Shown: positions 39-15,328, numbered from the stretch's first letter. The stretch is 19,870 nt of DNA from a virus (IMGVR_UViG_3300033066_001908); one strand, 5' to 3'. The notes: a model not told the origin generated them from the letters alone. Numbers and translations: made by a program.

Positions 39-1910
39 TCAGTCCTTCGTTGGATCCCAGCCTCGGGTCGGTCCGACACGTGCAAACGGCTTTCCTTCGA
101 TCAGAGAAGGCACGTATGACGTTCCCATCGTGTCACTTACGTCACCACGATGAACTGCGTCCAAGAGGTTACCCTTCTGACCAGACCCGAGCATTCTGGT
201 ATAAGGATCCGGATCTGTCGATACCGAGGTTGCGGCACGCAGCATCTCAGGTTCAAACGGCGGCGCTTCCGGATGGACCTGCAAAGCCTTCACGTTGTGC
301 TTCTGAAAGTGTTGTAACATCGAAGGCCTGATTTTCGTGCCAATTGTGTAATGAAGTGTCGGTACTTCCAGATATTTACCGACACTTTGTGCAGGCGAAA
401 CCATCATGGTCCCAGGCCGCGGAGTCCAGTTCCGCTCAAGCGTGTGGTACTGTACGACATCGTCCGGGGCATAGTCGCCCCAAAGATCCGTCAACCGCAC
501 GTGATCGATCATACCTCGGGTAGCCAGTTCGACGTTCCGACGATGGACTGACATCCCGGAGGCCTTGTACGCATTTCGAAAGGCATCCATAAAGTAACGG
601 CGACCTTCGCCGATCCCTTTGTGTTTGACAATTTCTGCCGGATTTGGAAGTCCGGACGAGAGAACATCCCCCGCTTCAATTGGATCACCAGGTTTGACCG
701 ACACAGTTTGTTCAGGTGGAACATAGTGTTCTTCGTTGTTGATATCGACGAAGTTTCCACCCTGTGGGGCCGGTCGGATCTGCTTCACGACTCCATCGAA
801 CTGGGAGTGCGTGGCGCCACCTGGAAAGTGCTCTGGCACTTGGGCTAATTGGTTAATCAAATCGAATCCGGTTGGCCCGGCACCAGCGATACCACCGGAG
901 TGTTTCGACGACAGCGAACCTTGCGTCAGCTTTTCGGACAAAGCCTGGCCAGCCGCAATACCCACATAATCGCCAAGCGGAGCGAGCCGCCCCCGTTCTC
1001 GGTGTCCAACATCGCGGGCATAAACACCCCCATCGGCAGGGCCGCCCACCAAAGGACTACGAACCAGAATGTGATCATGTCCAGCATCGCTAAGCTCTCG
1101 CAGAATCTTTGGCGTGACTACTGTGTTACGTGCATATCCAGCCACGGGTGCGGCAAGTAAGGCACCCACGCTGTCTCGATCAGAAGTTGGGACTGGAAGT
1201 CCTCGAATGGAATTCGGGTCTCCCGGTTCTTCATCGTCCACAGCGGACACGAGCAGCCGGTGAGCAGTTTGCTGCAGCTGTTTAGCGAAGTACCCAGAGT
1301 TTGCCGTAGCGAGTTTGGTGTCAATGACCCCACGCCGGGCACCGTACGCCCCGGCGAAGTATTCGGCCGGGGAAAGACCCTCGGAGTAGTTGTGAAGAAT
1401 CGGGAGCGCAATGCGGTTCCCATGATGATCCTCATAAGCCACATCGAAACCACGGAGACTCCGAAGATTAGTCGGATTGCCGCGCGAGCCCGAAAGGACT
1501 TGTAACGCGAGAGGATTCTTCTCAGCCAGGCTTTCATTATAAATGTCTTTCGTTAATGCGCCGCCTTCCTTGTCCATGAGGGCGTCGAGCTGTGCCTGAC
1601 GGTCCTCGTCTGACAAGTTTTTCTGCGACAAAACTTGACTGATCTGCCGTCCGATTCGGCTACGCGCAGCTTGTGTGGCAGCGGCCGGACGCAGATGCTT
1701 CAAACCAAAGGTGTTGCCACCCGACAGATAAGCAGACTCTCGAGCAACCTGCATCAGCTTGTGGACTGTGTCCCGGTACTGTTCTGGTCGTTTATCGATG
1801 ATGTCCTGCAGGAGCTTCTCAGTTGTACCCTTATCGAGCACAGTACCGTACCGGCGTAGTTCCGGAGGCAGTGCTTCTTGCACCAAAAGTTGGCCCATTG
1901 TGGTTTGCAT
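39..1910 (-). CDS. rpoC: RNA polymerase beta-prime subunit, C-terminal part (rim helices, F-loop, bridge helix, trigger loop, jaw), 623 aa
   Basis: Starts MQTTMGQLL (cf. RpoC DTTVGRAIL). SGSRGNPTNLRSL matches SGARGSAAQIRQL. Bridge helix GLSPAEYFAGAYGARRGVIDTKLATANSGYFAKQL matches [35 protein letters not shown]. Trigger loop AAGQALSEKLTQGSLSSKHSGG matches [21 protein letters not shown]. Jaw hairpin VKPGDPIEAGDVLSSG. TAATG overlap with the upstream gene. The symbol denotes homology only. Confidence 0.93.
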   Translation of the reverse strand: MQTTMGQLLVQEALPPELRRYGTVLDKGTTEKLLQDIIDKRPEQYRDTVHKLMQVARESAYLSGGNTFGLKHLRPAAATQAARSRIGRQISQVLSQKNLSDEDRQAQLDALMDKEGGALTKDIYNESLAEKNPLALQVLSGSRGNPTNLRSLRGFDVAYEDHHGNRIALPILHNYSEGLSPAEYFAGAYGARRGVIDTKLATANSGYFAKQLQQTAHRLLVSAVDDEEPGDPNSIRGLPVPTSDRDSVGALLAAPVAGYARNTVVTPKILRELSDAGHDHILVRSPLVGGPADGGVYARDVGHRERGRLAPLGDYVGIAAGQALSEKLTQGSLSSKHSGGIAGAGPTGFDLINQLAQVPEHFPGGATHSQFDGVVKQIRPAPQGGNFVDINNEEHYVPPEQTVSVKPGDPIEAGDVLSSGLPNPAEIVKHKGIGEGRRYFMDAFRNAYKASGMSVHRRNVELATRGMIDHVRLTDLWGDYAPDDVVQYHTLERNWTPRPGTMMVSPAQSVGKYLEVPTLHYTIGTKIRPSMLQHFQKHNVKALQVHPEAPPFEPEMLRAATSVSTDPDPYTRMLGSGQKGNLLDAVHRGDVSDTMGTSYVPSLIEGKPFARVGPTRGWDPTKD

Positions 1911-2152
1911 TACCGGATTCCGGGAAGAATCAGATCATCTTGTGTCATCTGGGTCGTAAATACCGTTTGAGTGACACCGACAACCTGCAACAACTTGTCG
2001 AAGTCCGCATCACCTGCTTTGGCGGCCATGATCGCACGAGCGAAGTCAGCCGCTACCAGGACAGGTGTATTATGCACAGCGTCACGGATAACAATCCGTG
2101 ACGCAATGACTTTTACTGGTCGTCCGTGGTCGTCGAGGTATTCAAGGATCAT
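1910..2152 (-). CDS. Hypothetical protein, 80 aa, between the two RNAP genes
   Basis: ATGA overlap with the upstream gene and TAATG overlap with the downstream RNAP gene; globular-looking composition; no recognised family. Confidence 0.8.
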   Translation of the reverse strand: MILEYLDDHGRPVKVIASRIVIRDAVHNTPVLVAADFARAIMAAKAGDADFDKLLQVVGVTQTVFTTQMTQDDLILPGIR

Positions 2153-3042
2153 TGTACAACGACTTGCCTTTGCTGCCGGGACGCTGCGATCATGTGCATG
2201 ACCATGTTGGCCCGGTCCTGCACGCTACCTTCAGCGGCCTCAGCCTGTTTTGGTGGAGGGAACATTTCAGTGATTGACGGAGGCGGCGTTGTGACGGCAA
2301 CCTTTTCGAATGGAATACCAAGTGACAATGCCGCATCTTCCAGATCAAAGTCTTCGTCCGCAGCAGTCTTTGGTGCGATCGCCGGCGCGAACTGCATTTG
2401 CTGCTGTTGAGGTTGTGCGTTTGGATCCTGCCCACCGGCAGCATTCGGATCGGCTCCCGGAGCTGCAACACCAGGGCTTTGGACGTTAGCGCCCATCGCG
2501 CCGGCCATCGATGGATCAGTGCCAGGTGGCGGGCCGAGCATGGCTTCCGGCGGAATCTCGACTTGAACCCCAGCCTTGTTGAGGGCTGTGATGATTGCCA
2601 TCAGGAACGTGTTCGTTTTGTAGAGCTGCAGTGCGACTTCATCGCCACCTTTGCTCTTCTTCGGGCCAGCGGCACCGGCCGCGCCAGGCATACCAGGCTG
2701 TCCGCCTTGCTGCATAGCTTGCTGCACAGCCTGCGTGACGACCTGTTGAATCATCATCATCATCTCAGGAGGTGGGCCAGCTGGCGCACCCCCAGCCCCG
2801 CCAGACGGATCTCCACCTGGAGGCGCTCCGGAGGGATCGCCAGGAGGCGGCGCACCGCCCATTGATGGATCGCCGCCTGACGGGGGAGCCCCACCTTGAC
2901 TTGGATCGCCGCCAGGAGGAGGAGCCCCGCCAGCGGCTGGATCGCCACCGGCTTGTCCTGCCGGAATGAACGCGGCCTTTCGGAGACCGGTGTTGTTCTT
3001 TGCCAGCTCCAACAGAAGTGGGTTGAGCTTCATCGTGGACAT
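2149..3042 (-). CDS. Gly/Pro/Ala/Gln-rich low-complexity protein (about 297 aa), function unknown
   Basis: Fills the gap after the RNAP fusion gene. Start ATG 3042 has a GAGGA SD; the GTG at 3057 (GTGA overlap) is the alternative. GGDP repeats, MMMM and QQQQ runs, no Cys. Confidence 0.82.
   Translation of the reverse strand: MSTMKLNPLLLELAKNNTGLRKAAFIPAGQAGGDPAAGGAPPPGGDPSQGGAPPSGGDPSMGGAPPPGDPSGAPPGGDPSGGAGGAPAGPPPEMMMMIQQVVTQAVQQAMQQGGQPGMPGAAGAAGPKKSKGGDEVALQLYKTNTFLMAIITALNKAGVQVEIPPEAMLGPPPGTDPSMAGAMGANVQSPGVAAPGADPNAAGGQDPNAQPQQQQMQFAPAIAPKTAADEDFDLEDAALSLGIPFEKVAVTTPPPSITEMFPPPKQAEAAEGSVQDRANMVMHMIAASRQQRQVVVQ
2800..2949 (-). repeat. In-frame tandem repeat encoding (G)GDP-x-x-GGAPP, five degenerate units
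   Basis: Plus-strand GGATCGCC/GGATCTCC cores start at 2807, 2834, 2867, 2903 and 2939 (spacings 27, 33, 36, 36 nt). Translation: GGDPAAGGAPPP GGDPSQGGAPPS GGDPSMGGAPPP GDPSGAPP GGDPSGG. Confidence 0.85.
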
Positions 3043-3053
3043 AAGGCCGGTCC

Positions 3054-6000
3054 TCACTGATCGGGATTAAGGATTTCTACTTGCTGTCCGAGGTGCCCGA
3101 GCCCGCGTTTGAAGGCCTGGATCGCTTCGGTCTTGGTTTTGAACCGCATTGGCTGATCGTTTGTACGCGCTGAAGTTGCCGCATACAAGCCCCCTAAATA
3201 CTCCTGACTGGGCTGGTACATCGGCCGGAATTCAGAAACGGACAATAGATTACGACTTGGCATCATCTTTGTATAGGCGTCACGAACAGCTTCATGGGTC
3301 GCTGGAACGTGGAACTGCATCGCATCCCCATCGTAATCCCCACCGAAACCTTTGATTACGATCGGCGAAGTTTCCAGGTTGTGGCCCTTGGTCAATCGCG
3401 GTCGGAAGGCCATCACACCATACCGGTGCAACACCGGTGCGCGGTCAATGATCAGCGGACGTTCTTCCATAACTGATAGCAAAGCCTGTCGGGCAGTGGC
3501 GTGTTTGCCATGCACTAAAGCCGCTGCGCGCATCGGTGACATGCCGCGCTTGACCATGTGACGGACGATGAACGGCTGGTAGATCTTCCATGCAGAATCT
3601 TCTGGTACGCCGACCTGATCCATGTCGAGGTCTGGATTCGGAATGATGGTGGATCGCCCAACGAGATCTGTAGTGCTGCCCAGAAGTCGGCGCTGAACGA
3701 CAGACCATTTTGGTGATGTGCCAAGGACATGTTTGAGAACCCCTTTGACTTCTTGTTCCTGGAGCTTTGCTGGCGCGGGATCACCCAGACCAGCGACTGC
3801 GCGCATAGAGTTATACAGCGCCAGACGTTCTTCCGAAACGTCTGCAAAACTCTTCTTATTCTCAGCCAGGTTCTGGTTGGTCTCGAAGAGATCGCGGTAC
3901 AGGTAATTTGGATCTGCCACCATGGGCACGTCCGATCCTTTCATCTTGGATACTGGACGAAATTGTGGTGGCAACACCGGCGCAGCGGTCCAAAACCACT
4001 CACGAGGGTGCAATCCTGTCTTCTTAATGCCCAACAGAAAACCAATCTTCTTGATTGCCTCGTCACGGGCTGTCTTACGTCCGTTGCGAACATCATATGC
4101 GGTGCGAGCTAGCTCAGTATCGACGTTCATTCGATCGAGTGCATTGTACAACGCATCTGGTCCAGTCTGATCGCCGAACTTCTCGCGGCCGGCGATGATC
4201 TCCGTGTATTGGTTCTTGGTCAGACCCAGCAGCTTTCGGATCGGATCTTCCATGACAGGGTTCGGCATGCGCTCAGTCAGCGGGATCTTTGCCCATCGAC
4301 CGCCATTGGCGCCGCCAAACAACTTCTCATCAAACAATCCGCCTTCGATCGGCTTTAGATTGCCAGAGTTCCAGTCGACTGTATCGGGTCGTTGCAGTAC
4401 GCGATCACCAGCGAGATCGTCGATGTTCTTCTGGGTCATCGCCATGATCTGCGTACGGGTACCGGTGCGGACTGGATTGATACCAGCCGCCTGCAGATTG
4501 CTGACGAACTTCTTATAGACAAATGGAACAGGCGGATCAGGAGGCTCCCGTCCGCTCATGACAGCGGCCCAGTATTCAGGATTGCGCTGGCCACGCACCA
4601 GGCTACCGTCACGAGCGACCTCAGTGCCACCGTGACTCAGGATGGCATTGAGGTGGAGCATCCCCCATGTTTTGGATCCTTCAGGGCCACCCTTCGCAGG
4701 AGCTTCGTCTGCCGTGTAGGTACCAAGACCACGTGCGGAGGCCTTCGATTCTGAAATGTGATGGAGCTTCATCAAGAAGCTGTTACCCACAAGCACACCA
4801 GGAATCTTACGACCGGTGACAGGATCCGTCACGTCTTCGGTGTCGGACATACCGTGGCGCTGCAACTCTTGCTGCGTGAAGTTCGCCAGGTCATCGATGT
4901 TATCGAAGTCTTTCACCCGGTAACGTTGACCAGTGACTGCGGCGATCTTGCCCAACAGCATTTCGGGAACCTGGCTGGGGTTTGATCGAGAGATCACACC
5001 CAACGGGTTCTGCAGAAACTCGAGCGGCTTACCGTCTTGCGCGACTGGCATCTCGTGATCAGGGATCACTGCCGCCACGACACCCTTGTTACCGTATCGA
5101 CCGGAGACCTTGTCACCGACCTGCAGTGGCATTGTGGTCTTCACGGCAACCGTGACACCTTTGTCCGTACGATGCACGTCGGTCACGATCCCCGGAGCTT
5201 CATGCTCCCAGGTTTCAGACTGATCACTGAAAGCGTGTGCCCGGGCGCCGGACACGTCGCCAACACGAGGCCGCCGCTTAGCGACGGCCAGCATCAGCGG
5301 GTCACCGTGTTCAACACGTTGTCCAACTTGAATGACGCCATCGGGACCGAGCTTGTCGAGCTGATCCTTCTGGAAGTTACCGGAGAAAATCGAGGAGAAC
5401 TTTCGCTTATCGACCTGACTGTTGTCAGGACTGTTCTCGATCATGCTCTTGTACATATGCTGTGAAGCAAAGCGTTTCGCGGCCGACTCGCTGATCACCG
5501 TGGCGTCTTCGAAGTTGTAACCTCGAAGCGGCAAGTAACCAGTGCGGACATTCAAACCCAATGCGGTCGCGCCGGTGTCGTCTGTGTAATTGCTCTTCGC
5601 CAACAAGTGGCCCGCGGCGAACTGTTGTCCTGGTTGAACCAACGGCTCCTGGTGCAAGTATGTCTTCCGCGCGGAAGGCATATTCTGCGCCAGCTCGTGT
5701 GTCTGCTGCGTACCGTCTTGATATTGGACCGTGATACTGTCGGGCTTCACATCGAGCACGCGCCCAGGTTGCGCGGCCCGTACAGCACCCATGCGTGTCC
5801 CGTAGGCTTCTTCAAAGGACTGATCGGAATCAGGGCTGCCTGACTGCACAAAGGGTGACTCGCCTTTGTTAATCGGCAGTGCTTGGGTCATCATGCGTGC
5901 CGCCATCGCGACGCGCTGACCCTTCATGCCCGACTTCATCGGAACCATATTGGCCAACGGAGACAGTGCGTGCTCCATGTGTGGCACCTGGTAGTCGACC

Positions 6001-7559
6001 GTGTCGGACGAAACCAGGCTAATCTTTCCATTCTTGAGCGCTGGCACGTAGTACCTGGTCTGTCCGTTGGGATGTGGGTTTCCGGGCGCTTCGTAGATGT
6101 GCCCGCGAGCCAAAGCTTGCCGTACCCGCATAAAGGTATCGTTGTCCATCTGCTGTCCGACCTGCGGTGGCGTCACACCAGGGAAGGCCAGCGTCTTGCC
6201 GAACAGCGACATCGGATCCTTCCAGACCGTCTGACCAGTCCGGACATCCTTGAACGGAGCATAGACCTCGCCATTTGGGCCTTTACGAAGGTTCCGAACC
6301 ATGCGAGATTCCACCCCGGCACGTTCAGACTCAGGTGTAACCAGAAAGTCGAGGTACCCAAAATGTGACGGTTGTACCGATCGGGAAGTCTTCGGAATGG
6401 CATCGGACGAAGGCAGACCACCATAACCCATACGGGTCACGCGCATCTGCTGGTCGAAAGTCATTGCCGGGTTAATACCTTCCGTCGATTGGGCCAGACC
6501 ACTGTCGAGCAAAGCGCCCCGGACATTCTTGTTCAGGGCGTTTGTCAGTACGGTGCCCAGCATTCCCTTTCGGGAAGAGCGCCAAAGCAATTGCCGCAGG
6601 TTGTTGTGTCCGCCGTTGATTCGCTCAGCGATGAGATCCTCCGGTCCGACCAATCGCATAAAGCCCAGATGATCACGATCGTCTTGTTCTGCGGCTTGCA
6701 GACCCAGCCGCTGTAGGAACTCCGGGTTCTTACGATTCTTGACCGCCAGCAACCGACGTGTGGTTGCCAGGATCATGTCAGCTGACACCTTGTCAAATGG
6801 TTGACCCAGTGTCTGTTGATTCACGGCCGGATCCAACTTGGTGCCTTCCATCGCAGCCCTGATCGCCATCTGCTGTTGTTCAGCTGTGGCGGGCTGTGCG
6901 TTCTTGACCAGACGTTGATAGAGTTTCAACGTGTCACCGGCCGAACTCTTCTTGAGATTCACGGCGGCCAGGTCATTGCCCCAGGCGTTCCGGAGTTGTT
7001 CTGTGCTGGTACCCATGGCCTGCAGGAGCGGCACAATCGGGATCTTTGCCTGCCCCACGCGTACTCGAAAGATACCGGTTTGCGGGTCCATAAAGATACG
7101 ATGGGGGACACCTTGACCAGGCAACACGTTGACGTGTGCCTCCAACTCTCCATTGTCCTTTTCGCGGGTATAGACCCCGGGTTTCAAGCGAAGCTGACTG
7201 GCCACCGTGTACTCGGTGCCATTGTCAATCATTGTCCCACGATCCGTGTAGTACGGAATCTTCGCCAACGTAACCCGGCGGCTATCAAGGGTTTGCCCGG
7301 TTACATTGTCAACCAAATGAGCATCGGCCCGAAGTCGTCGACCGACAGTCTGTCGTGAGAGCAAGGCCTGCTTTTGAACAGCCAGCGGAACATGATCCGG
7401 ATCATCATAACCCGGGTTGGTGAACTTCAACGTGTGGGTCTGTGACGCGATCGGCGGCAGCTTGGTAACTGCCGACAGCGCACTATCGAAAATCGCCCCT
7501 CGGACAGCCGCTGGATCGTCGACCGACCGTCCGGGCGGTTGAAGGGGATCGAGATTCAT
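3054..7559 (-). CDS. rpoBC: RNA polymerase fusion protein: complete beta subunit joined to the N-terminal catalytic part of beta-prime, 1501 aa
   Basis: Beta motifs: IPYYTDRGTMIDNGTEYTVASQLR, RVTRMGYGGL, SHFGYLDFLVTPE, GYNFEDA, GDKVSGRYGNKG, NPLGVISRSN, MKLHHISESKASARGLGTY. Beta-prime motifs follow in frame after about 4460: PDTVDWNSGNLKPIEGGLFDEKLFG, PVLPPQFRP, LLGSTTDLVGRSTI, RAPVLHR and catalytic GGDYDGDAMQFHVP (motif at 3324-3344). TAATG overlap with the upstream gene. The symbol denotes homology only. Confidence 0.95.
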   Translation of the reverse strand: MNLDPLQPPGRSVDDPAAVRGAIFDSALSAVTKLPPIASQTHTLKFTNPGYDDPDHVPLAVQKQALLSRQTVGRRLRADAHLVDNVTGQTLDSRRVTLAKIPYYTDRGTMIDNGTEYTVASQLRLKPGVYTREKDNGELEAHVNVLPGQGVPHRIFMDPQTGIFRVRVGQAKIPIVPLLQAMGTSTEQLRNAWGNDLAAVNLKKSSAGDTLKLYQRLVKNAQPATAEQQQMAIRAAMEGTKLDPAVNQQTLGQPFDKVSADMILATTRRLLAVKNRKNPEFLQRLGLQAAEQDDRDHLGFMRLVGPEDLIAERINGGHNNLRQLLWRSSRKGMLGTVLTNALNKNVRGALLDSGLAQSTEGINPAMTFDQQMRVTRMGYGGLPSSDAIPKTSRSVQPSHFGYLDFLVTPESERAGVESRMVRNLRKGPNGEVYAPFKDVRTGQTVWKDPMSLFGKTLAFPGVTPPQVGQQMDNDTFMRVRQALARGHIYEAPGNPHPNGQTRYYVPALKNGKISLVSSDTVDYQVPHMEHALSPLANMVPMKSGMKGQRVAMAARMMTQALPINKGESPFVQSGSPDSDQSFEEAYGTRMGAVRAAQPGRVLDVKPDSITVQYQDGTQQTHELAQNMPSARKTYLHQEPLVQPGQQFAAGHLLAKSNYTDDTGATALGLNVRTGYLPLRGYNFEDATVISESAAKRFASQHMYKSMIENSPDNSQVDKRKFSSIFSGNFQKDQLDKLGPDGVIQVGQRVEHGDPLMLAVAKRRPRVGDVSGARAHAFSDQSETWEHEAPGIVTDVHRTDKGVTVAVKTTMPLQVGDKVSGRYGNKGVVAAVIPDHEMPVAQDGKPLEFLQNPLGVISRSNPSQVPEMLLGKIAAVTGQRYRVKDFDNIDDLANFTQQELQRHGMSDTEDVTDPVTGRKIPGVLVGNSFLMKLHHISESKASARGLGTYTADEAPAKGGPEGSKTWGMLHLNAILSHGGTEVARDGSLVRGQRNPEYWAAVMSGREPPDPPVPFVYKKFVSNLQAAGINPVRTGTRTQIMAMTQKNIDDLAGDRVLQRPDTVDWNSGNLKPIEGGLFDEKLFGGANGGRWAKIPLTERMPNPVMEDPIRKLLGLTKNQYTEIIAGREKFGDQTGPDALYNALDRMNVDTELARTAYDVRNGRKTARDEAIKKIGFLLGIKKTGLHPREWFWTAAPVLPPQFRPVSKMKGSDVPMVADPNYLYRDLFETNQNLAENKKSFADVSEERLALYNSMRAVAGLGDPAPAKLQEQEVKGVLKHVLGTSPKWSVVQRRLLGSTTDLVGRSTIIPNPDLDMDQVGVPEDSAWKIYQPFIVRHMVKRGMSPMRAAALVHGKHATARQALLSVMEERPLIIDRAPVLHRYGVMAFRPRLTKGHNLETSPIVIKGFGGDYDGDAMQFHVPATHEAVRDAYTKMMPSRNLLSVSEFRPMYQPSQEYLGGLYAATSARTNDQPMRFKTKTEAIQAFKRGLGHLGQQVEILNPDQ

Positions 7560-8443
7560 TATACCGCCGGAGGTTGAAGGACCAGATGAGGTGGAGCTGG
7601 GTTACGAAGCTGTTGTGCTCGGCGTCGAGCCAGCAATGCTTCCTGCAGAGCCTTCGAGTCACTGGTGTTTCGCGCATACTGGTAAGCCAGAATCCCGGTC
7701 GGGACACCGGTCACAGCTGCGATTGTTGCCAGGCTACCAGCACCGGCACCAGCGACGTTCTTGAGTGCGTTTCGAGCCCACGGGTACGTGACCAGGGCGT
7801 CCATGCCACCTTCAGCAGTCTTCCGGATGATCTCACGGGCTTCGTTCAGACAGGCCACCTTCGGGTGCAGGCCTTGGATCGCCTGTTCGTATTCTTGCTT
7901 GGCCGCGTTCAGGTCTTCATCAGCAATGCCAGCGCGATGCTTATCCGCCAGCCAGTCAACCAGCTTCCAGCCGCCAGCGCCCGCAGCCAAACCGCCGCCA
8001 ATCATCGCAGGCCCTTGCCACCACTTAGCGGCCGGGTTCGTGGTACCCAGCGGGTCGGCCATCTGCAGTGCTGGTTTGAGTGCGTTGTCATAAAGTCCAG
8101 TTGCCACGCGGCCCAGCGTGCTTTCAGCCATCTTGCTCGCGGCCAACATCTCCTGACGACGTTGTTCTTCCGGATCCATCGGGACTGGGACTTCAACCGG
8201 CAGGGCGGCGCCTGTCCTTGTTGTGGGTTGCGGCGGACCGCCAAGCAGCGACGGGACTTCCTTGCCTACGCGGGCCAAGGCGCCCAGTCCGAACATACCA
8301 ACGCCAGCACCCAAGACATTCTTGAGTGCCGCGATGTCCGCCAACTGCGACGGGTCATGTGCCCGCTTGCTGTAGGTGGAGAGCCGGTGGAGCGACAGGG
8401 CCTCGTAACTCGAAGGGCACTTTGCCTCTTGGGATTTCGCCAT
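7559..8443 (-). CDS. Ala/Gly-rich protein with three glycine-zipper-like hydrophobic segments (about 294 aa); possible virion internal/ejection protein
   Basis: Segments VLGAGVGMFGLGALA, AMIGGGLAAGAGGW and VAGAGAGSLATIAAVTGVPTGILAY. ATG 8443 has a GGAG SD, but the start is uncertain because it overlaps the upstream gene by 89 nt. Function is inference. Confidence 0.75.
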   Translation of the reverse strand: MAKSQEAKCPSSYEALSLHRLSTYSKRAHDPSQLADIAALKNVLGAGVGMFGLGALARVGKEVPSLLGGPPQPTTRTGAALPVEVPVPMDPEEQRRQEMLAASKMAESTLGRVATGLYDNALKPALQMADPLGTTNPAAKWWQGPAMIGGGLAAGAGGWKLVDWLADKHRAGIADEDLNAAKQEYEQAIQGLHPKVACLNEAREIIRKTAEGGMDALVTYPWARNALKNVAGAGAGSLATIAAVTGVPTGILAYQYARNTSDSKALQEALLARRRAQQLRNPAPPHLVLQPPAV

Positions 8444-8777
8444 AGATCTGACTCCACTCAACGTAAATTCGCATGCCGTTATGTTCAGGGACGTAGTTTC
8501 GAGCGATAAAGGAGATCAGGTACCAGCCATTCGCAGCACGGTCTTGGATTTCCTCATAAGCCTTTAACTGTTCTGGATCCCACAAGTCAAATTGTTTGCA
8601 ATGAAAATCTGCGATCTGTTCGATCGCATCAACCTCAGCAGCAGTCAGGGCAATCTGGTTTACGCCGCGGAGTGGGGGGAACTCACCGTTAGGAACCCAT
8701 TGAATTGGGCCGCCGTGTGCTGATGTTGGTCCGCCTCGCTCCTGGAAATACTTGAACAGAGACCCTGGCTGATTCAT
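8355..8777 (-). CDS. Hypothetical protein, about 140 aa (MNQPGSLFKYF...)
   Basis: ATG 8777 lies 1 nt after the stop of the upstream gene. The longer ORF call from 8987 overlaps that gene and is unlikely. Aromatic-rich, globular composition. Confidence 0.75.
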   Translation of the reverse strand: MNQPGSLFKYFQERGGPTSAHGGPIQWVPNGEFPPLRGVNQIALTAAEVDAIEQIADFHCKQFDLWDPEQLKAYEEIQDRAANGWYLISFIARNYVPEHNGMRIYVEWSQIYGEIPRGKVPFELRGPVAPPALHLQQAGT

Positions 8778-10465: not shown

Positions 10466-11476
10466 TTATCGGTACTGCCAACGCCCCTGTTGCGCTGGAT
10501 AGTATTGGGGCCAATAATATGTTGGCTGCTGCACCGTCACGGTAACATTTTGAACTGGCTTAGTCAAAGGTTGCGCCTGCGCCGGCTTTGGATTCTTCTG
10601 TCGTTTCTGCGTAATGGCCTTGCCCCGAGGGGTCCGATAGGTCAATTGATCCGCATCGCCGAGCAGCAGATTCGCCAATTCATACGGGTCAGATGGGATG
10701 TCATCCTTTCCAACCAAGCGCTTTTCTTCTTTACCGTTATTCAAAATGATCAATGTTGGCAGGCTTTCGATCCTATAACCCTTCAACATACCGGTAAGGT
10801 GTTCATCGAAGTCCAGCACGGCAATCAAAGCCTGTGTGTCCCGCGTCGAACAATTCCAACCGCCAGCTTCCAAGATATGGGCTGCTGCCTTGACTGGCTC
10901 GCATGGCTTGCACCATGTGCCACCGACAATCAGCATCTGGCGAATCGGCGGGTTTACATCCTCGACAGCTGATGCTGGTTCTTCCGCGCAGGCCATAGCG
11001 ACAGCAGACAACGGGGCCACAGGCACCATCGCAATTTGGTTGCTGTGATGCCGGTTGTTGTGTCGGCCAACCGGACAATGATCGCATCGGCAGCCAGGAC
11101 CGCAGGTACACGGCTGCTGACAACGACAGTGCGGGCCGCAAACACCATTATTTGGCGACGGTCCGGGGCTCGGATCGGGATTCGGAGAAGGGTTGTCCGG
11201 TTTCTTACAGTGGCAGTATTTGCCGCATGGACAAGGGATATCGATGATCCCGTCGCCCGATTTCACCTTCTTCGTACCGTGACACTTCTCGCAATATTGA
11301 TGGGTTTCATCACCGTCTTGGTTGTCGTCAGGCTTGTCGGGTTGAGGCGTAACGTGTCCGCCAGGGGCCAGCATCCACATCAAAACAGTGACGCGCGCCT
11401 TCTCGAACTGCAGGTCATTCTGGTCGGCAGTTGGGCTGCCGATCAGAGACGCCAGGAGTAGAAGTGTGTAGGTCAT
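10466..11476 (-). CDS. Exported Cys-rich protein with a C-terminal thioredoxin-like domain (WCKPC), about 336 aa
   Basis: ATG 11476 lies 2 nt after the upstream stop. N-terminal hydrophobic leader MTYTLLLLASLIGSP. Clusters CEKCHG...CPCGKYCHC and CGPHCRCQQPCTCGPGCRCDHC. Thioredoxin fold motifs GGTWCKPC...YRIESLPTLIILNNGKEEKRLVG (cis-Pro motif). Confidence 0.85.
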   Translation of the reverse strand: MTYTLLLLASLIGSPTADQNDLQFEKARVTVLMWMLAPGGHVTPQPDKPDDNQDGDETHQYCEKCHGTKKVKSGDGIIDIPCPCGKYCHCKKPDNPSPNPDPSPGPSPNNGVCGPHCRCQQPCTCGPGCRCDHCPVGRHNNRHHSNQIAMVPVAPLSAVAMACAEEPASAVEDVNPPIRQMLIVGGTWCKPCEPVKAAAHILEAGGWNCSTRDTQALIAVLDFDEHLTGMLKGYRIESLPTLIILNNGKEEKRLVGKDDIPSDPYELANLLLGDADQLTYRTPRGKAITQKRQKNPKPAQAQPLTKPVQNVTVTVQQPTYYWPQYYPAQQGRWQYR

Positions 11477-13544: not shown

Positions 13545-14603
13545 TCAGAAGAGCTTATTGGCAAGGCCACTCACTAGGCCAGCCCAGAGTCCCGTCTGTT
13601 GGGCGTATTGTTGTCCAGCAGGGCTGAGGCCTGCAAGACCACCTAGCAGCTTTCCGGCCATCAGGCCAGTTGCCGAACCCATGACGGCGCCCATACCACC
13701 GCTGACCGCAGCTTCTGTCGCAACGCGCGCAATATCCCATGGTGAAACATGGCTCTGTTGCCGTGCGGCGCCAGCGGCACTGACCAAACCACCAATCAAC
13801 GCAGCATCGCGAGGAGGGGTGAACATCTGGGCGCTATTGTCGCCCCAATTTGACTTTGAACCGTACGGATTTGGCATCGCGTTGGCCCAAATCGCTTGGT
13901 TGAAAGCATCTACGGGAATACTCGGCGTGAACATCGCACCCGTGCTATCCATCGCATCTTCAAAAGCGAAGTTTGCCCGCTTGGGAAGATCTGCCGTCCA
14001 GGGAAATGGAGATGTCAGATCATGCCCGGCCGAACTGGCCGCACTGGCTCGAATTAAACCTGGCACGGCACCAGCTGCAGCGCCCATCATGCCCAGAGTA
14101 TGTGCCCAGTGTGAGTTACCGATCAGCTCGTGTTCTTTATCCTGTGGGCCGCCTGGTGCATATTTCGGAAGCACAGTACGCAAGCTGGCGGGAATGACCG
14201 CATCAGCCACGCGACCAAGCCCATAACCGCCCAATCCGCCGATCGCGCTTCCGACCAGTGTGGTGGTTAAGGCGTTTGGCCCACCGATCGCCTTGTTGGC
14301 ATAGCTAAAAAAATCAGCGGCCGGCCGGGTGAGATCACTCACCCGGAACGAAGATTGTTTGACGAAGTACACATAGTCGTGTGTGGGCAGGTCCGCCGCC
14401 TGCTTGATGTTGTTCTTTACCAGGAATGCCGCATCGATACCTTGATACGGCGCCGGCGTGTTCATCCAGATGGTGCGGTTCCAAAGATCCACAGCAACAT
14501 CCGGGGCTTGCAGTTCCATTGCATGCTTGTGACCCCAGCTCACGATGTCCCGCGCGTGATCAGTCAGCTGGACAATGTCGTGGGAGAGGTCGCGCCAGTT
14601 CAT
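13545..14603 (-). CDS. Ala/Gly-rich, Cys-free protein with several glycine-zipper segments (about 352 aa); possible virion internal/ejection protein
   Basis: ATG 14603 gives an ATGA overlap with the upstream stop. Segments GSAIGGLGGYGLG, LGMMGAAAGAVPG, GGMGAVMGSATGLMAGKLLGGLAG and GLWAGLVSGLA. Function is inference. Confidence 0.8.
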   Translation of the reverse strand: MNWRDLSHDIVQLTDHARDIVSWGHKHAMELQAPDVAVDLWNRTIWMNTPAPYQGIDAAFLVKNNIKQAADLPTHDYVYFVKQSSFRVSDLTRPAADFFSYANKAIGGPNALTTTLVGSAIGGLGGYGLGRVADAVIPASLRTVLPKYAPGGPQDKEHELIGNSHWAHTLGMMGAAAGAVPGLIRASAASSAGHDLTSPFPWTADLPKRANFAFEDAMDSTGAMFTPSIPVDAFNQAIWANAMPNPYGSKSNWGDNSAQMFTPPRDAALIGGLVSAAGAARQQSHVSPWDIARVATEAAVSGGMGAVMGSATGLMAGKLLGGLAGLSPAGQQYAQQTGLWAGLVSGLANKLF

Positions 14604-15328
14604 GTGTTTCGCATCCCGAAGTACCGGCTCCACAACTGCTCGTATGGTGCCATGAGGCTAAACTTGGAAGCGGGAGTGGTATCACCACGTTCCCACGCGT
14701 TTCGCCACAATTTGTACCCATAGACGTTTTCTTGGTCTAGTTCGGGTGTTGGGTTGATCATCATGTGCGACATGTCCCGACCGAAAGGGCAACCCTGTGC
14801 GGCAGTTAGAATTGTGGCGTCTGGCCGCGTCGGCCAGTGATCGTGGATGACATCCATCAGGTCCGCAACCGGTTTGTCTGATTCCTCCAATTCATTTTCC
14901 GCAGAATCGACTGCCCGTTGCGCGATGGCGCTTCCTGCTGGAAGCCTAAGCAGATAAGGCGAAAGGCCGTGACGATCTGGATCGCGCACGGCCAGGAATG
15001 GACTTTTGGGTAACGGTTGAGTCAGCACGTAATCGTTGTCGACCCAAACACCGCCATGACGGAAAAGTGCTGCGCACATGAAGCGCAGTCGAAAATTCTG
15101 ATGTTTGGGATCTTTGTCACGCGTCAGCTCGTCTTCCGGGACGATCTCAGCGCCGTCCTTGTATTCCGCCGGTACAGGTAATACCCCCAACCAACGCTGA
15201 CTTCCGTAGACGTAGGCGTGATGTTCGTACCCAGCAGAGAGACACGACTCAATCGAGAGTCGTTCCATACGTGTGATTGGCTGAAGGTGCAGAGAAAAAG
15301 ACAACCCGATTGTCGGAGCGGCGAGCAT
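14600..15328 (-). CDS. Glycosyltransferase, DxD-type GT-A (GT32 / capsular-synthesis-like), 242 aa
   Basis: RLRFMCAALFRHGGVWVDND resembles the D-x-x-R...L-x-x-x-GG-I-Y-x-D-x-D signature of GT32-like enzymes. N-terminal RLSIESCLSAGYEHHAYVY and late YGYKLWRNAW segments fit that family. TAATG overlap upstream. Confidence 0.75.
   Translation of the reverse strand: MLAAPTIGLSFSLHLQPITRMERLSIESCLSAGYEHHAYVYGSQRWLGVLPVPAEYKDGAEIVPEDELTRDKDPKHQNFRLRFMCAALFRHGGVWVDNDYVLTQPLPKSPFLAVRDPDRHGLSPYLLRLPAGSAIAQRAVDSAENELEESDKPVADLMDVIHDHWPTRPDATILTAAQGCPFGRDMSHMMINPTPELDQENVYGYKLWRNAWERGDTTPASKFSLMAPYEQLWSRYFGMRNT

Follow-up and report, generated by a model that had tools for sequence, protein, structure and literature searches.

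The stretch of DNA analysed here (the window) comprises 19,870 nt of the viral contig IMGVR_UViG_3300033066_001908 and carries all of its real genes on the minus strand. Positions 39-7559, the feature under study, hold four adjacent genes that appear to encode a working two-chain RNA polymerase (RNAP) of bacterial type, from which cysteine is totally absent. The first chain (3054-7559, 1,501 residues, hereafter the fusion chain) joins a complete β subunit to the N-terminal, catalytic half of β′, as judged from Pfam matches (Rpb2_6 at 9.6e-55, Rpb1_2 at 2.1e-19, plus Rpb1_1) and alignment, and the second (39-1910, 623 residues, hereafter β′-C) supplies the C-terminal half of β′ (Pfam Rpb1_5 at 2.5e-22, plus Rpb1_4). 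Two small genes are inserted between them: a 297-residue protein of low complexity (2149-3042; 302 residues if the GTG at 3057 is used), whose translation consists of Gly/Pro/Asp repeats and of runs of Met and Gln, and an 80-residue protein (1910-2152, from translation) whose start overlaps the preceding stop and whose stop overlaps the start of β′-C. Neither of these small proteins had a Pfam or PHROG match. The lysine motif of β (GDK...GNKG) is intact in the fusion chain (GDKVSGRYGNKG, residues 813-824) and the catalytic DxDGD triad of β′ is present as GGDYDGD, with D1408, D1410 and D1412 invariant across 22 homologues, so that the polymerase looks active. Both Cys4 zinc sites of bacterial β′ are missing, the second necessarily so because β′-C holds no cysteine; these sites are a conserved trait of the cellular enzymes and no requirement of the two-barrel fold. 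All polymerase domains found by Pfam in the window proteins were of the β/β′ type. No Pfam match to the RNAP subunits α or ω was found among the window open reading frames (ORFs), no directed whole-genome search having been made, and a search for T7-like RNAP was uninformative, as the control genomes gave no match either.

A first-pass annotation of the window had noticed, by hand count, about 2,500 consecutive residues without cysteine and had read this as the signature of an RNAP that is packaged in the virion and injected. The count itself was confirmed programmatically: the four genes contain no cysteine over 2,501-2,506 consecutive residues, and the codons TGT and TGC are absent from the coding frame, whereas that strand read in its two other frames contains 218 of them. 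This does not reflect a genome-wide bias, as that annotation had also maintained, since the remaining 15 genes of the window contain 68 cysteines in 4,008 residues (1.70%), among them 22 in a glycosyltransferase fragment (1,025 residues) and 18 in a thioredoxin-like protein. The probability of finding no cysteine in 2,501 residues is 2.6e-19 at the window frequency and 1.2e-11 at a frequency of 1%. Cellular β and β′ subunits are themselves poor in cysteine (0.59% over 149 proteins, from a scan of genome contigs whose matches were mostly cellular rpoB-rpoC), some β subunits holding a single one; at this rate the two RNAP chains should together hold about 12.5 cysteines, whose absence has a probability of about 4e-6 (Poisson estimate). 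The strong signal sits in these two chains, because the zero count of the 80-residue protein is not significant alone and the low complexity of the 297-residue protein by itself favours few cysteines. A general avoidance of oxidisable residues was also considered and was rejected, since methionine is not depleted and makes up 3.6% of the fusion chain.

The absence of cysteine, first noted in the window, extends to close homologues. A protein search returned 570 relatives, and the family comprises hundreds of contigs from many sequencing projects. The 102 best normal-length homologues of the fusion chain (48-83% identity) comprise 95 without cysteine and seven with a single one, which gives 7 cysteines in 150,447 residues (0.0047%). 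Homologues of β′-C were collected from 80 IMG/VR loci, and 57 of the 67 complete ones are free of cysteine. At 45% identity or more (n = 53) they hold four cysteines in 33,493 residues, all of them N-terminal, at residues 1-10 of two ORFs; even these may stem from wrong start calls. ORFs flanking the same loci contain 1.13% cysteine, which corresponds to a suppression of about 100- to 240-fold in the polymerase chains. The rule does not extend strictly to the 80-residue protein, whose homologues (6 loci) mostly hold one or two cysteines. The positional homologues of the 297-residue protein are free of cysteine in three related viral genomes, G001 (the closest IMG/VR relative, 51% identity), G002 (197 kb, 96% complete) and G003 (204.8 kb with terminal repeats, 100% complete), and five of its seven homologues across loci have none. 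Six loci carry a β′-C with a cysteine-free C-terminal extension of 300-750 residues (L034:18579-22688, L035, L039:16008-19727, L076, L079 and L066); these extended chains hold 0-1 cysteine in 918-1,369 residues, and the extension of L034 contains a P-loop kinase-like domain (AAA_18/AAA_33).

Could such a pattern arise by chance and inheritance, from a cysteine-poor ancestor that lost its zinc sites and whose descendants never regained cysteine? The low baseline of β and β′ and the relatedness of the sequences speak for this explanation, which is nevertheless barely credible: a cysteine content of 0.005% persists down to 48% identity, and 409 of the 2,124 RNAP codons of the window are a single mutation away from cysteine. 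In an alignment of 22 sequences, Trp occurs in 27 variable columns, His in 187 and Met in 256, whereas cysteine was seen once. Inheritance cannot explain the exclusion because these other residues turn over freely and cysteine does not. Cysteine exclusion in this family is conserved by purifying selection.

Insertions within the same genes provide a natural control, and one that also speaks against mere inheritance. Eighteen homologues of the fusion chain, among the sequences P0009-P0112, contain one to three large inserts each, at several different sites and up to three per gene, with 4-25 cysteines within the inserts. Pfam intein or homing-endonuclease domains were detected in many of these 18 proteins, and most inserts start with Cys and end with Asn. 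Large intein-type inserts have invaded the polymerase genes many times, bringing cysteine-rich segments into cysteine-free chains: all but three cysteines of the insert-bearing homologues fall within inserts. The residue following the Asn-ended inserts is a Ser or Thr extein nucleophile and never Cys, so that the spliced polymerase would stay free of cysteine. The enlarged β′-C chains of L010 and L056 (8 and 10 cysteines) resemble intein-bearing chains.

The zinc ligands offer a second control. In distant relatives (28-44% identity), namely Salmonella phage Arash (OQ632216), Vibrio phage D69 and the loci L058 and L069, β′-C holds exactly four cysteines, which follow the zinc-site pattern DC...TCx6Cx2C. 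The fusion chains of Arash, D69 and L069 hold 0-2 cysteines; that of L058 is of intein length (1,832 residues) and holds seven. Since these relatives retain only the ligands of the second zinc site, free cysteines have been removed family-wide, and the clade of the window has in addition lost the remaining zinc site. Members at a yet greater distance (L137-L139), phage-like contigs of 162-204 kb carrying this polymerase, hold 4-13 cysteines. The metagenome-assembled genomes into which they were binned are assigned to Thermoguttaceae (Planctomycetota), Leptolyngbyaceae and Bacteroidales, which hints only weakly at diderm hosts, and in L138 and L139 the open frame is much longer (2,066-2,387 residues).

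We then considered the genomic setting. In the assembly (L083), the contig with the window ends 38 nt past the β′-C gene, and the polymerase gene is present on two contigs of about 84 kb (83,870 and 83,989 bp). The region upstream of the polymerase in G001 is syntenic with the window, the 85.5-kb G001 contig is 42% complete according to CheckV, and head genes follow the polymerase there; the contig of the window therefore probably represents only part of a genome of about 200 kb, in which head genes would come next, and not a complete 84-kb phage. In G001, G002, G003 and Arash, β′-C is followed on one strand by orthologues of the Arash structural proteins gp218 and gp222, and then by the major capsid protein, the sheath, one very long protein and baseplate J. 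Where the sequence of a relative is complete or longer, the polymerase genes thus lie directly upstream of head-tail genes, a neighbourhood among structural genes that the first-pass annotation had envisaged. In these relatives other than Arash, the portal gene is far from the polymerase genes.

A sigma factor accompanies the polymerase in G002, G003 and Arash. Orthologues of Arash gp10 in G002 and G003 belong to the sigma-70 family (E 1e-15 against SigA chains, for a three-sequence profile compared with PDB chains), Pfam sigma profiles giving weak matches in both genomes. Like gp10 itself (L136:11892-12596, 234 residues), they are free of cysteine (G003:141787-142521, 244 residues; G002:182099-182914, 271 residues), and all three genes belong to the baseplate module, at a position two genes upstream of baseplate J. 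G002, G003 and Arash each have one β module. With a single RNAP set, infection must depend on this one enzyme throughout, unless it is begun by the host polymerase.

The distribution of cysteine in the complete genome G003 singles out the same proteins. Its overall cysteine content is 1.63%, and its most depleted long proteins are the fusion chain, a 1,174-residue protein and β′-C. The 1,174-residue protein has no cysteine, like its G002 counterpart (0 in 1,288 residues), and its gene is flanked by the sheath and tube genes on one side and by baseplate J on the other. Language-model comparison places it next to tape measure families, with a score of 0.88 that lies below 0.9 and counts as a lead only; its probable identity is that of the tape measure protein, which likewise exits through the tail tube. 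The other large cysteine-free proteins of G003 had no match in Pfam or PHROGs. Because the sheath, the tube and the gp222 orthologue of G003 retain 4-18 cysteines, total exclusion is specific to the RNAP, the sigma factor and the tape-measure-like protein. Other, presumably cytoplasmic enzymes of the same genomes, glycosyltransferase and terminase included, contain 1.1-1.7% cysteine overall.

Virion proteomics is available for Arash, a myovirus and the nearest cultured relative (PMC10585845), whose gp206 is 28% identical to the fusion chain of the window over 98% of its length. In the published virion table, gp206 ranks first, above the major capsid protein, with 3,516 spectra and 128 unique peptides; the β′-C chain gp216 is represented by 1,210 spectra, the SNF2 helicase gp217 by 1,148 and the sigma factor gp10 by 467 with 100% coverage (PMC10585845). 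The three most cysteine-depleted long proteins of Arash, gp229 (2 cysteines in 2,548 residues), gp206 and gp4 (0 in 1,097), are its three top-ranked virion proteins. A second Arash sigma factor, gp196, has 3 cysteines in 345 residues and does not appear in the table parts examined (rows Gp193, Gp194 and Gp197; PMC10585845). The gene of gp217 directly follows that of β′-C (L001:23127-24545) and encodes a 472-residue SNF2-family helicase (Pfam) without cysteine; no gp217 orthologue was seen adjoining β′-C in G001 or G003. Other Arash helicases, gp193, gp197 and gp198, hold 5-9 cysteines; gp193 and gp197 are represented by two unique virion peptides each and gp198 is not among the table parts examined (PMC10585845). 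The encapsidation proposed in the first-pass annotation thus finds support in a relative, both chains being among the most abundant virion proteins of Arash, while the window itself shows no sign of packaging. The Arash preparation, purified on a sucrose gradient, listed 116 proteins, including ribonucleotide reductases (2-11 unique peptides), and its authors allow for carry-over of abundant proteins (PMC10585845), so that these data are good evidence and not proof. Presence of the window's enzyme in virions is suggested by this homology.

The contrast with phiKZ indicates how far cysteine content can serve as a marker. The proteins were taken from the annotation, Pfam profiles being too insensitive for the phiKZ RNAP subunits. 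The virion RNAP of phiKZ, which we take to consist of gp80, gp149, gp178 and gp180, has 16 cysteines in 2,614 residues (0.61%), and the non-virion RNAP, presumably gp55, gp68, gp71, gp73, gp74 and gp123, has 33 in 2,850 (1.16%). Over the 142 kb covered, annotated structural proteins contain 100 cysteines in 18,200 residues (0.55%) and other ORFs 297 in 25,614 (1.16%); the tail protein gp181 has a single one in 2,241 residues (0.04%). Cysteine content therefore does track virion membership in phiKZ. The virion RNAP of this phage is, however, only twofold depleted, and packaging does not require freedom from cysteine. The absence of cysteine as a signature of virion RNAP consequently holds in a weaker form than that first claimed, since a packaged multisubunit enzyme need not be free of it.

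These same data could be taken to mean that the polymerase is packaged without being the early transcriptase, either as a DNA-bound passenger or with a structural or DNA-organising role in the head, its lack of cysteine following from a general low-cysteine rule for virion proteins. Such proteins are indeed depleted as a class, as seen in phiKZ (0.55% versus 1.16%) and in several Arash structural proteins with 0-1 cysteine, and the spectral counts of gp206 are very high for an enzyme needed in few copies (PMC10585845). The catalytic motifs are nevertheless intact and strongly conserved, the sigma factor and the SNF2 helicase accompany the polymerase in the Arash virion (PMC10585845), and the cysteines retained by the sheath, tube and gp222 orthologue of G003 show that total exclusion is not virion-wide. 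We regard a passenger or structural role as quite improbable.

By its architecture, the window enzyme belongs to the two-chain phage RNAP family typified by Arash. Like it, Arash and the Vibrio phages D69, D148 and D181 have a β-β′ N-terminal fusion of about 1,500 residues and a separate β′-C of about 610 residues, with full-length homology (28-30% identity, 87-98% coverage) and strong suppression of cysteine (1-2 in their fusion chains). These phages carry a single RNAP set each, with head genes after β′-C. They differ in that Arash and D69 retain the four zinc-ligand cysteines of β′-C, of which the clade of the window has none, and in that the Arash portal gene closely precedes the fusion gene and nine genes, instead of two small ones, separate the chains. 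The only literature that we found on this family is the Arash isolation paper, which reports detection in the virion and neither the architecture nor the cysteine pattern (PMC10585845).

Three other kinds of polymerase invite comparison. In β-β′ fusions of cellular origin, as in the rpoBC genes of Helicobacter and Wolbachia, β is joined to β′ in one reading frame; these differ from the window enzyme in having a whole β′ with its zinc sites and α and ω partners, while the β′ of the window is cut after its catalytic half. The crAss-like Cellulophaga phage phi14:2 carries a two-barrel polymerase, gp66, in its virion, which is a very divergent single chain from a podovirus-like lineage. The virion RNAPs of phiKZ-like phages (Chimalliviridae) and of AR9-like phages are multisubunit enzymes encoded by late genes, packed in the head and injected for transcription of early genes, and these two kinds are the only multisubunit phage RNAPs covered by reviews of jumbo phages (PMC7824862, PMC13282480). 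A multisubunit RNAP as an injected protein is thus not new in kind. The phiKZ and AR9 enzymes differ from that of the window in being made of four or five polypeptides, in lacking a sigma factor and in having a second, non-virion set in the genome; the window enzyme has two chains without cysteine, and its relatives have one RNAP set with an associated sigma-70-family factor.

The closest parallel in cysteine content comes from the N4-like Schitoviridae. The first-pass annotation had stated that the N4 virion RNAP lacks cysteine, and this is correct for N4 gp50 and its relatives, with passage through the periplasm as the published rationale (PMC11445570). The virion RNAPs N4 gp50 and DEV gp71 share the capsid with the ejection proteins gp51/52 and gp72/73 and enter Gram-negative cells by ejection; cysteine amounts to 0.00075-0.0055% in the ejection proteins of this family, 0.00075% in the RNAP, versus 0.865% proteome-wide (PMC11445570). 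The degree of family-wide suppression, as a ratio too, is of the same order as in the family of the window enzyme (0.005%; about 100- to 240-fold). In contrast to the latter, which is of the two-barrel multisubunit type and belongs to a lineage with a sheath gene, the Schitoviridae enzyme is a single-subunit T7-like polypeptide of about 3,500 residues found in short-tailed phages. Membership in the N4 gp50 family was ruled out, as only β/β′-type domains were found: the two enzymes are unrelated in fold, though they would work alike. Suppression of cysteine in ejected N4-like polymerases and injection of multisubunit RNAP in phiKZ and AR9 were already known; exclusion of cysteine from a multisubunit, probably sigma-dependent enzyme is new.

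We propose, with a probability of roughly 0.6, that the RNAP is made late, packed in the head with the cysteine-free sigma factor and delivered through the tail to begin transcription. Synthesis of the polymerase would coincide with that of the head and tail proteins, and the capsid would take it up together with the sigma factor that relatives encode in their baseplate module. At infection, the enzyme would be delivered via the tail and would carry out the earliest phage transcription independently of the host polymerase. A protein free of thiols and zinc would form no stray disulfides or oxidised cross-links during oxidising storage outside the cell, and would be protected in the same way during its passage, in an at least partly unfolded state, along the narrow tail channel and across the cell envelope; refolding would then be possible without metal uptake. 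Ejection, unfolding, refolding and early transcription, together with the reason for the exclusion of cysteine, are steps that we infer. The first-pass annotation had proposed passage of the unfolded enzyme through the oxidising periplasm; oxidising storage and threading through the tail would explain the pattern equally well.

Several points weigh against this proposal. The window contains neither a structural gene nor a packaging signal, its contig ending 38 nt past β′-C, and the proteomic support comes from a relative that is only 28% identical, in a preparation open to carry-over. Cellular β and β′ are already poor in cysteine (0.59%), the phiKZ virion RNAP keeps 16 cysteines, and more distant members of the family hold 4-13. 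Contact with the periplasm is doubtful for a contractile-tailed phage, as the tail tube may bypass this compartment; relatives carry a sheath gene and Arash is a myovirus. Finally, an enzyme of about 240 kDa in two chains would have to unfold, pass and reassemble.

Part of these points would fit a polymerase whose synthesis begins only after infection and which, without being injected, takes over from the host RNAP as in T7, with cysteine lost for another reason such as independence from zinc or from cellular redox conditions, or resistance to an attack that the phage or the host directs at the thiols or zinc sites of RNAP. The lack of a packaging signal or structural gene in the window, the carry-over of enzymes into virion preparations that the Arash authors allow (PMC10585845), the low baseline of the cellular subunits and the tolerance of the phiKZ virion RNAP for cysteine all favour it. 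We consider it unlikely, because cysteine is at normal or high levels (1.1-1.7%) in other enzymes of these genomes that are presumably cytoplasmic, methionine is not depleted, and three observations would be left unexplained: the exclusion shared with the sigma factor of the baseplate module and with the probable tape measure protein, the head-tail gene neighbourhood, and the top rank of gp206 in the Arash virion table (PMC10585845).

Other genes of the window, all on the minus strand, also deserve mention. Just upstream of the fusion gene lie genes for a 245-residue (7559-8296) and a 140-residue protein (8355-8777), both over-extended in the plain ORF list, with one cysteine each and without family match in Pfam or PHROGs; the 140-residue protein is conserved in 60 related loci, with cysteine-poor homologues. 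The thioredoxin-like protein (10466-11476), encoded a few genes upstream of the cysteine-free block, has 18 cysteines in 336 residues (5%) and a Pfam Thioredoxin match below the cut-off. A 362-residue protein (13545-14633) has no cysteine and is conserved in 52 related loci, its homologues averaging 0.33%; in G001 its homologue ends a run of four cysteine-free proteins (636, 612, 326 and 441 residues; 49376-56247). The 362-residue protein and this run may represent further virion-internal or delivered proteins.

Delivery of the polymerase through the tail, if true, would mean that a cell-type and probably sigma-dependent RNAP can be stored outside the cell, delivered and reactivated without zinc or thiols, which bears on the minimal needs of a two-barrel polymerase for folding and assembly. 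It would also make total exclusion of cysteine a cheap marker, read from sequence only, of phage proteins delivered through the tail, without culture or proteomics. As this large family has cultured members on Salmonella and Vibrio, the idea is directly testable. More tentatively, and as a possibility for which we would claim less than even odds, the head of a contractile-tailed phage may carry a complete holoenzyme of bacterial type (β with the N-terminal half of β′, β′-C and a sigma-70-family factor), which would be threaded into the cell and reassemble without zinc, thiols, α or ω; the design free of cysteine and zinc would then be the adaptation by which a multisubunit polymerase became fit for injection. 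If correct, these phages would represent a third independent origin of cysteine-free injected polymerases and would provide a minimal, self-assembling RNAP core.

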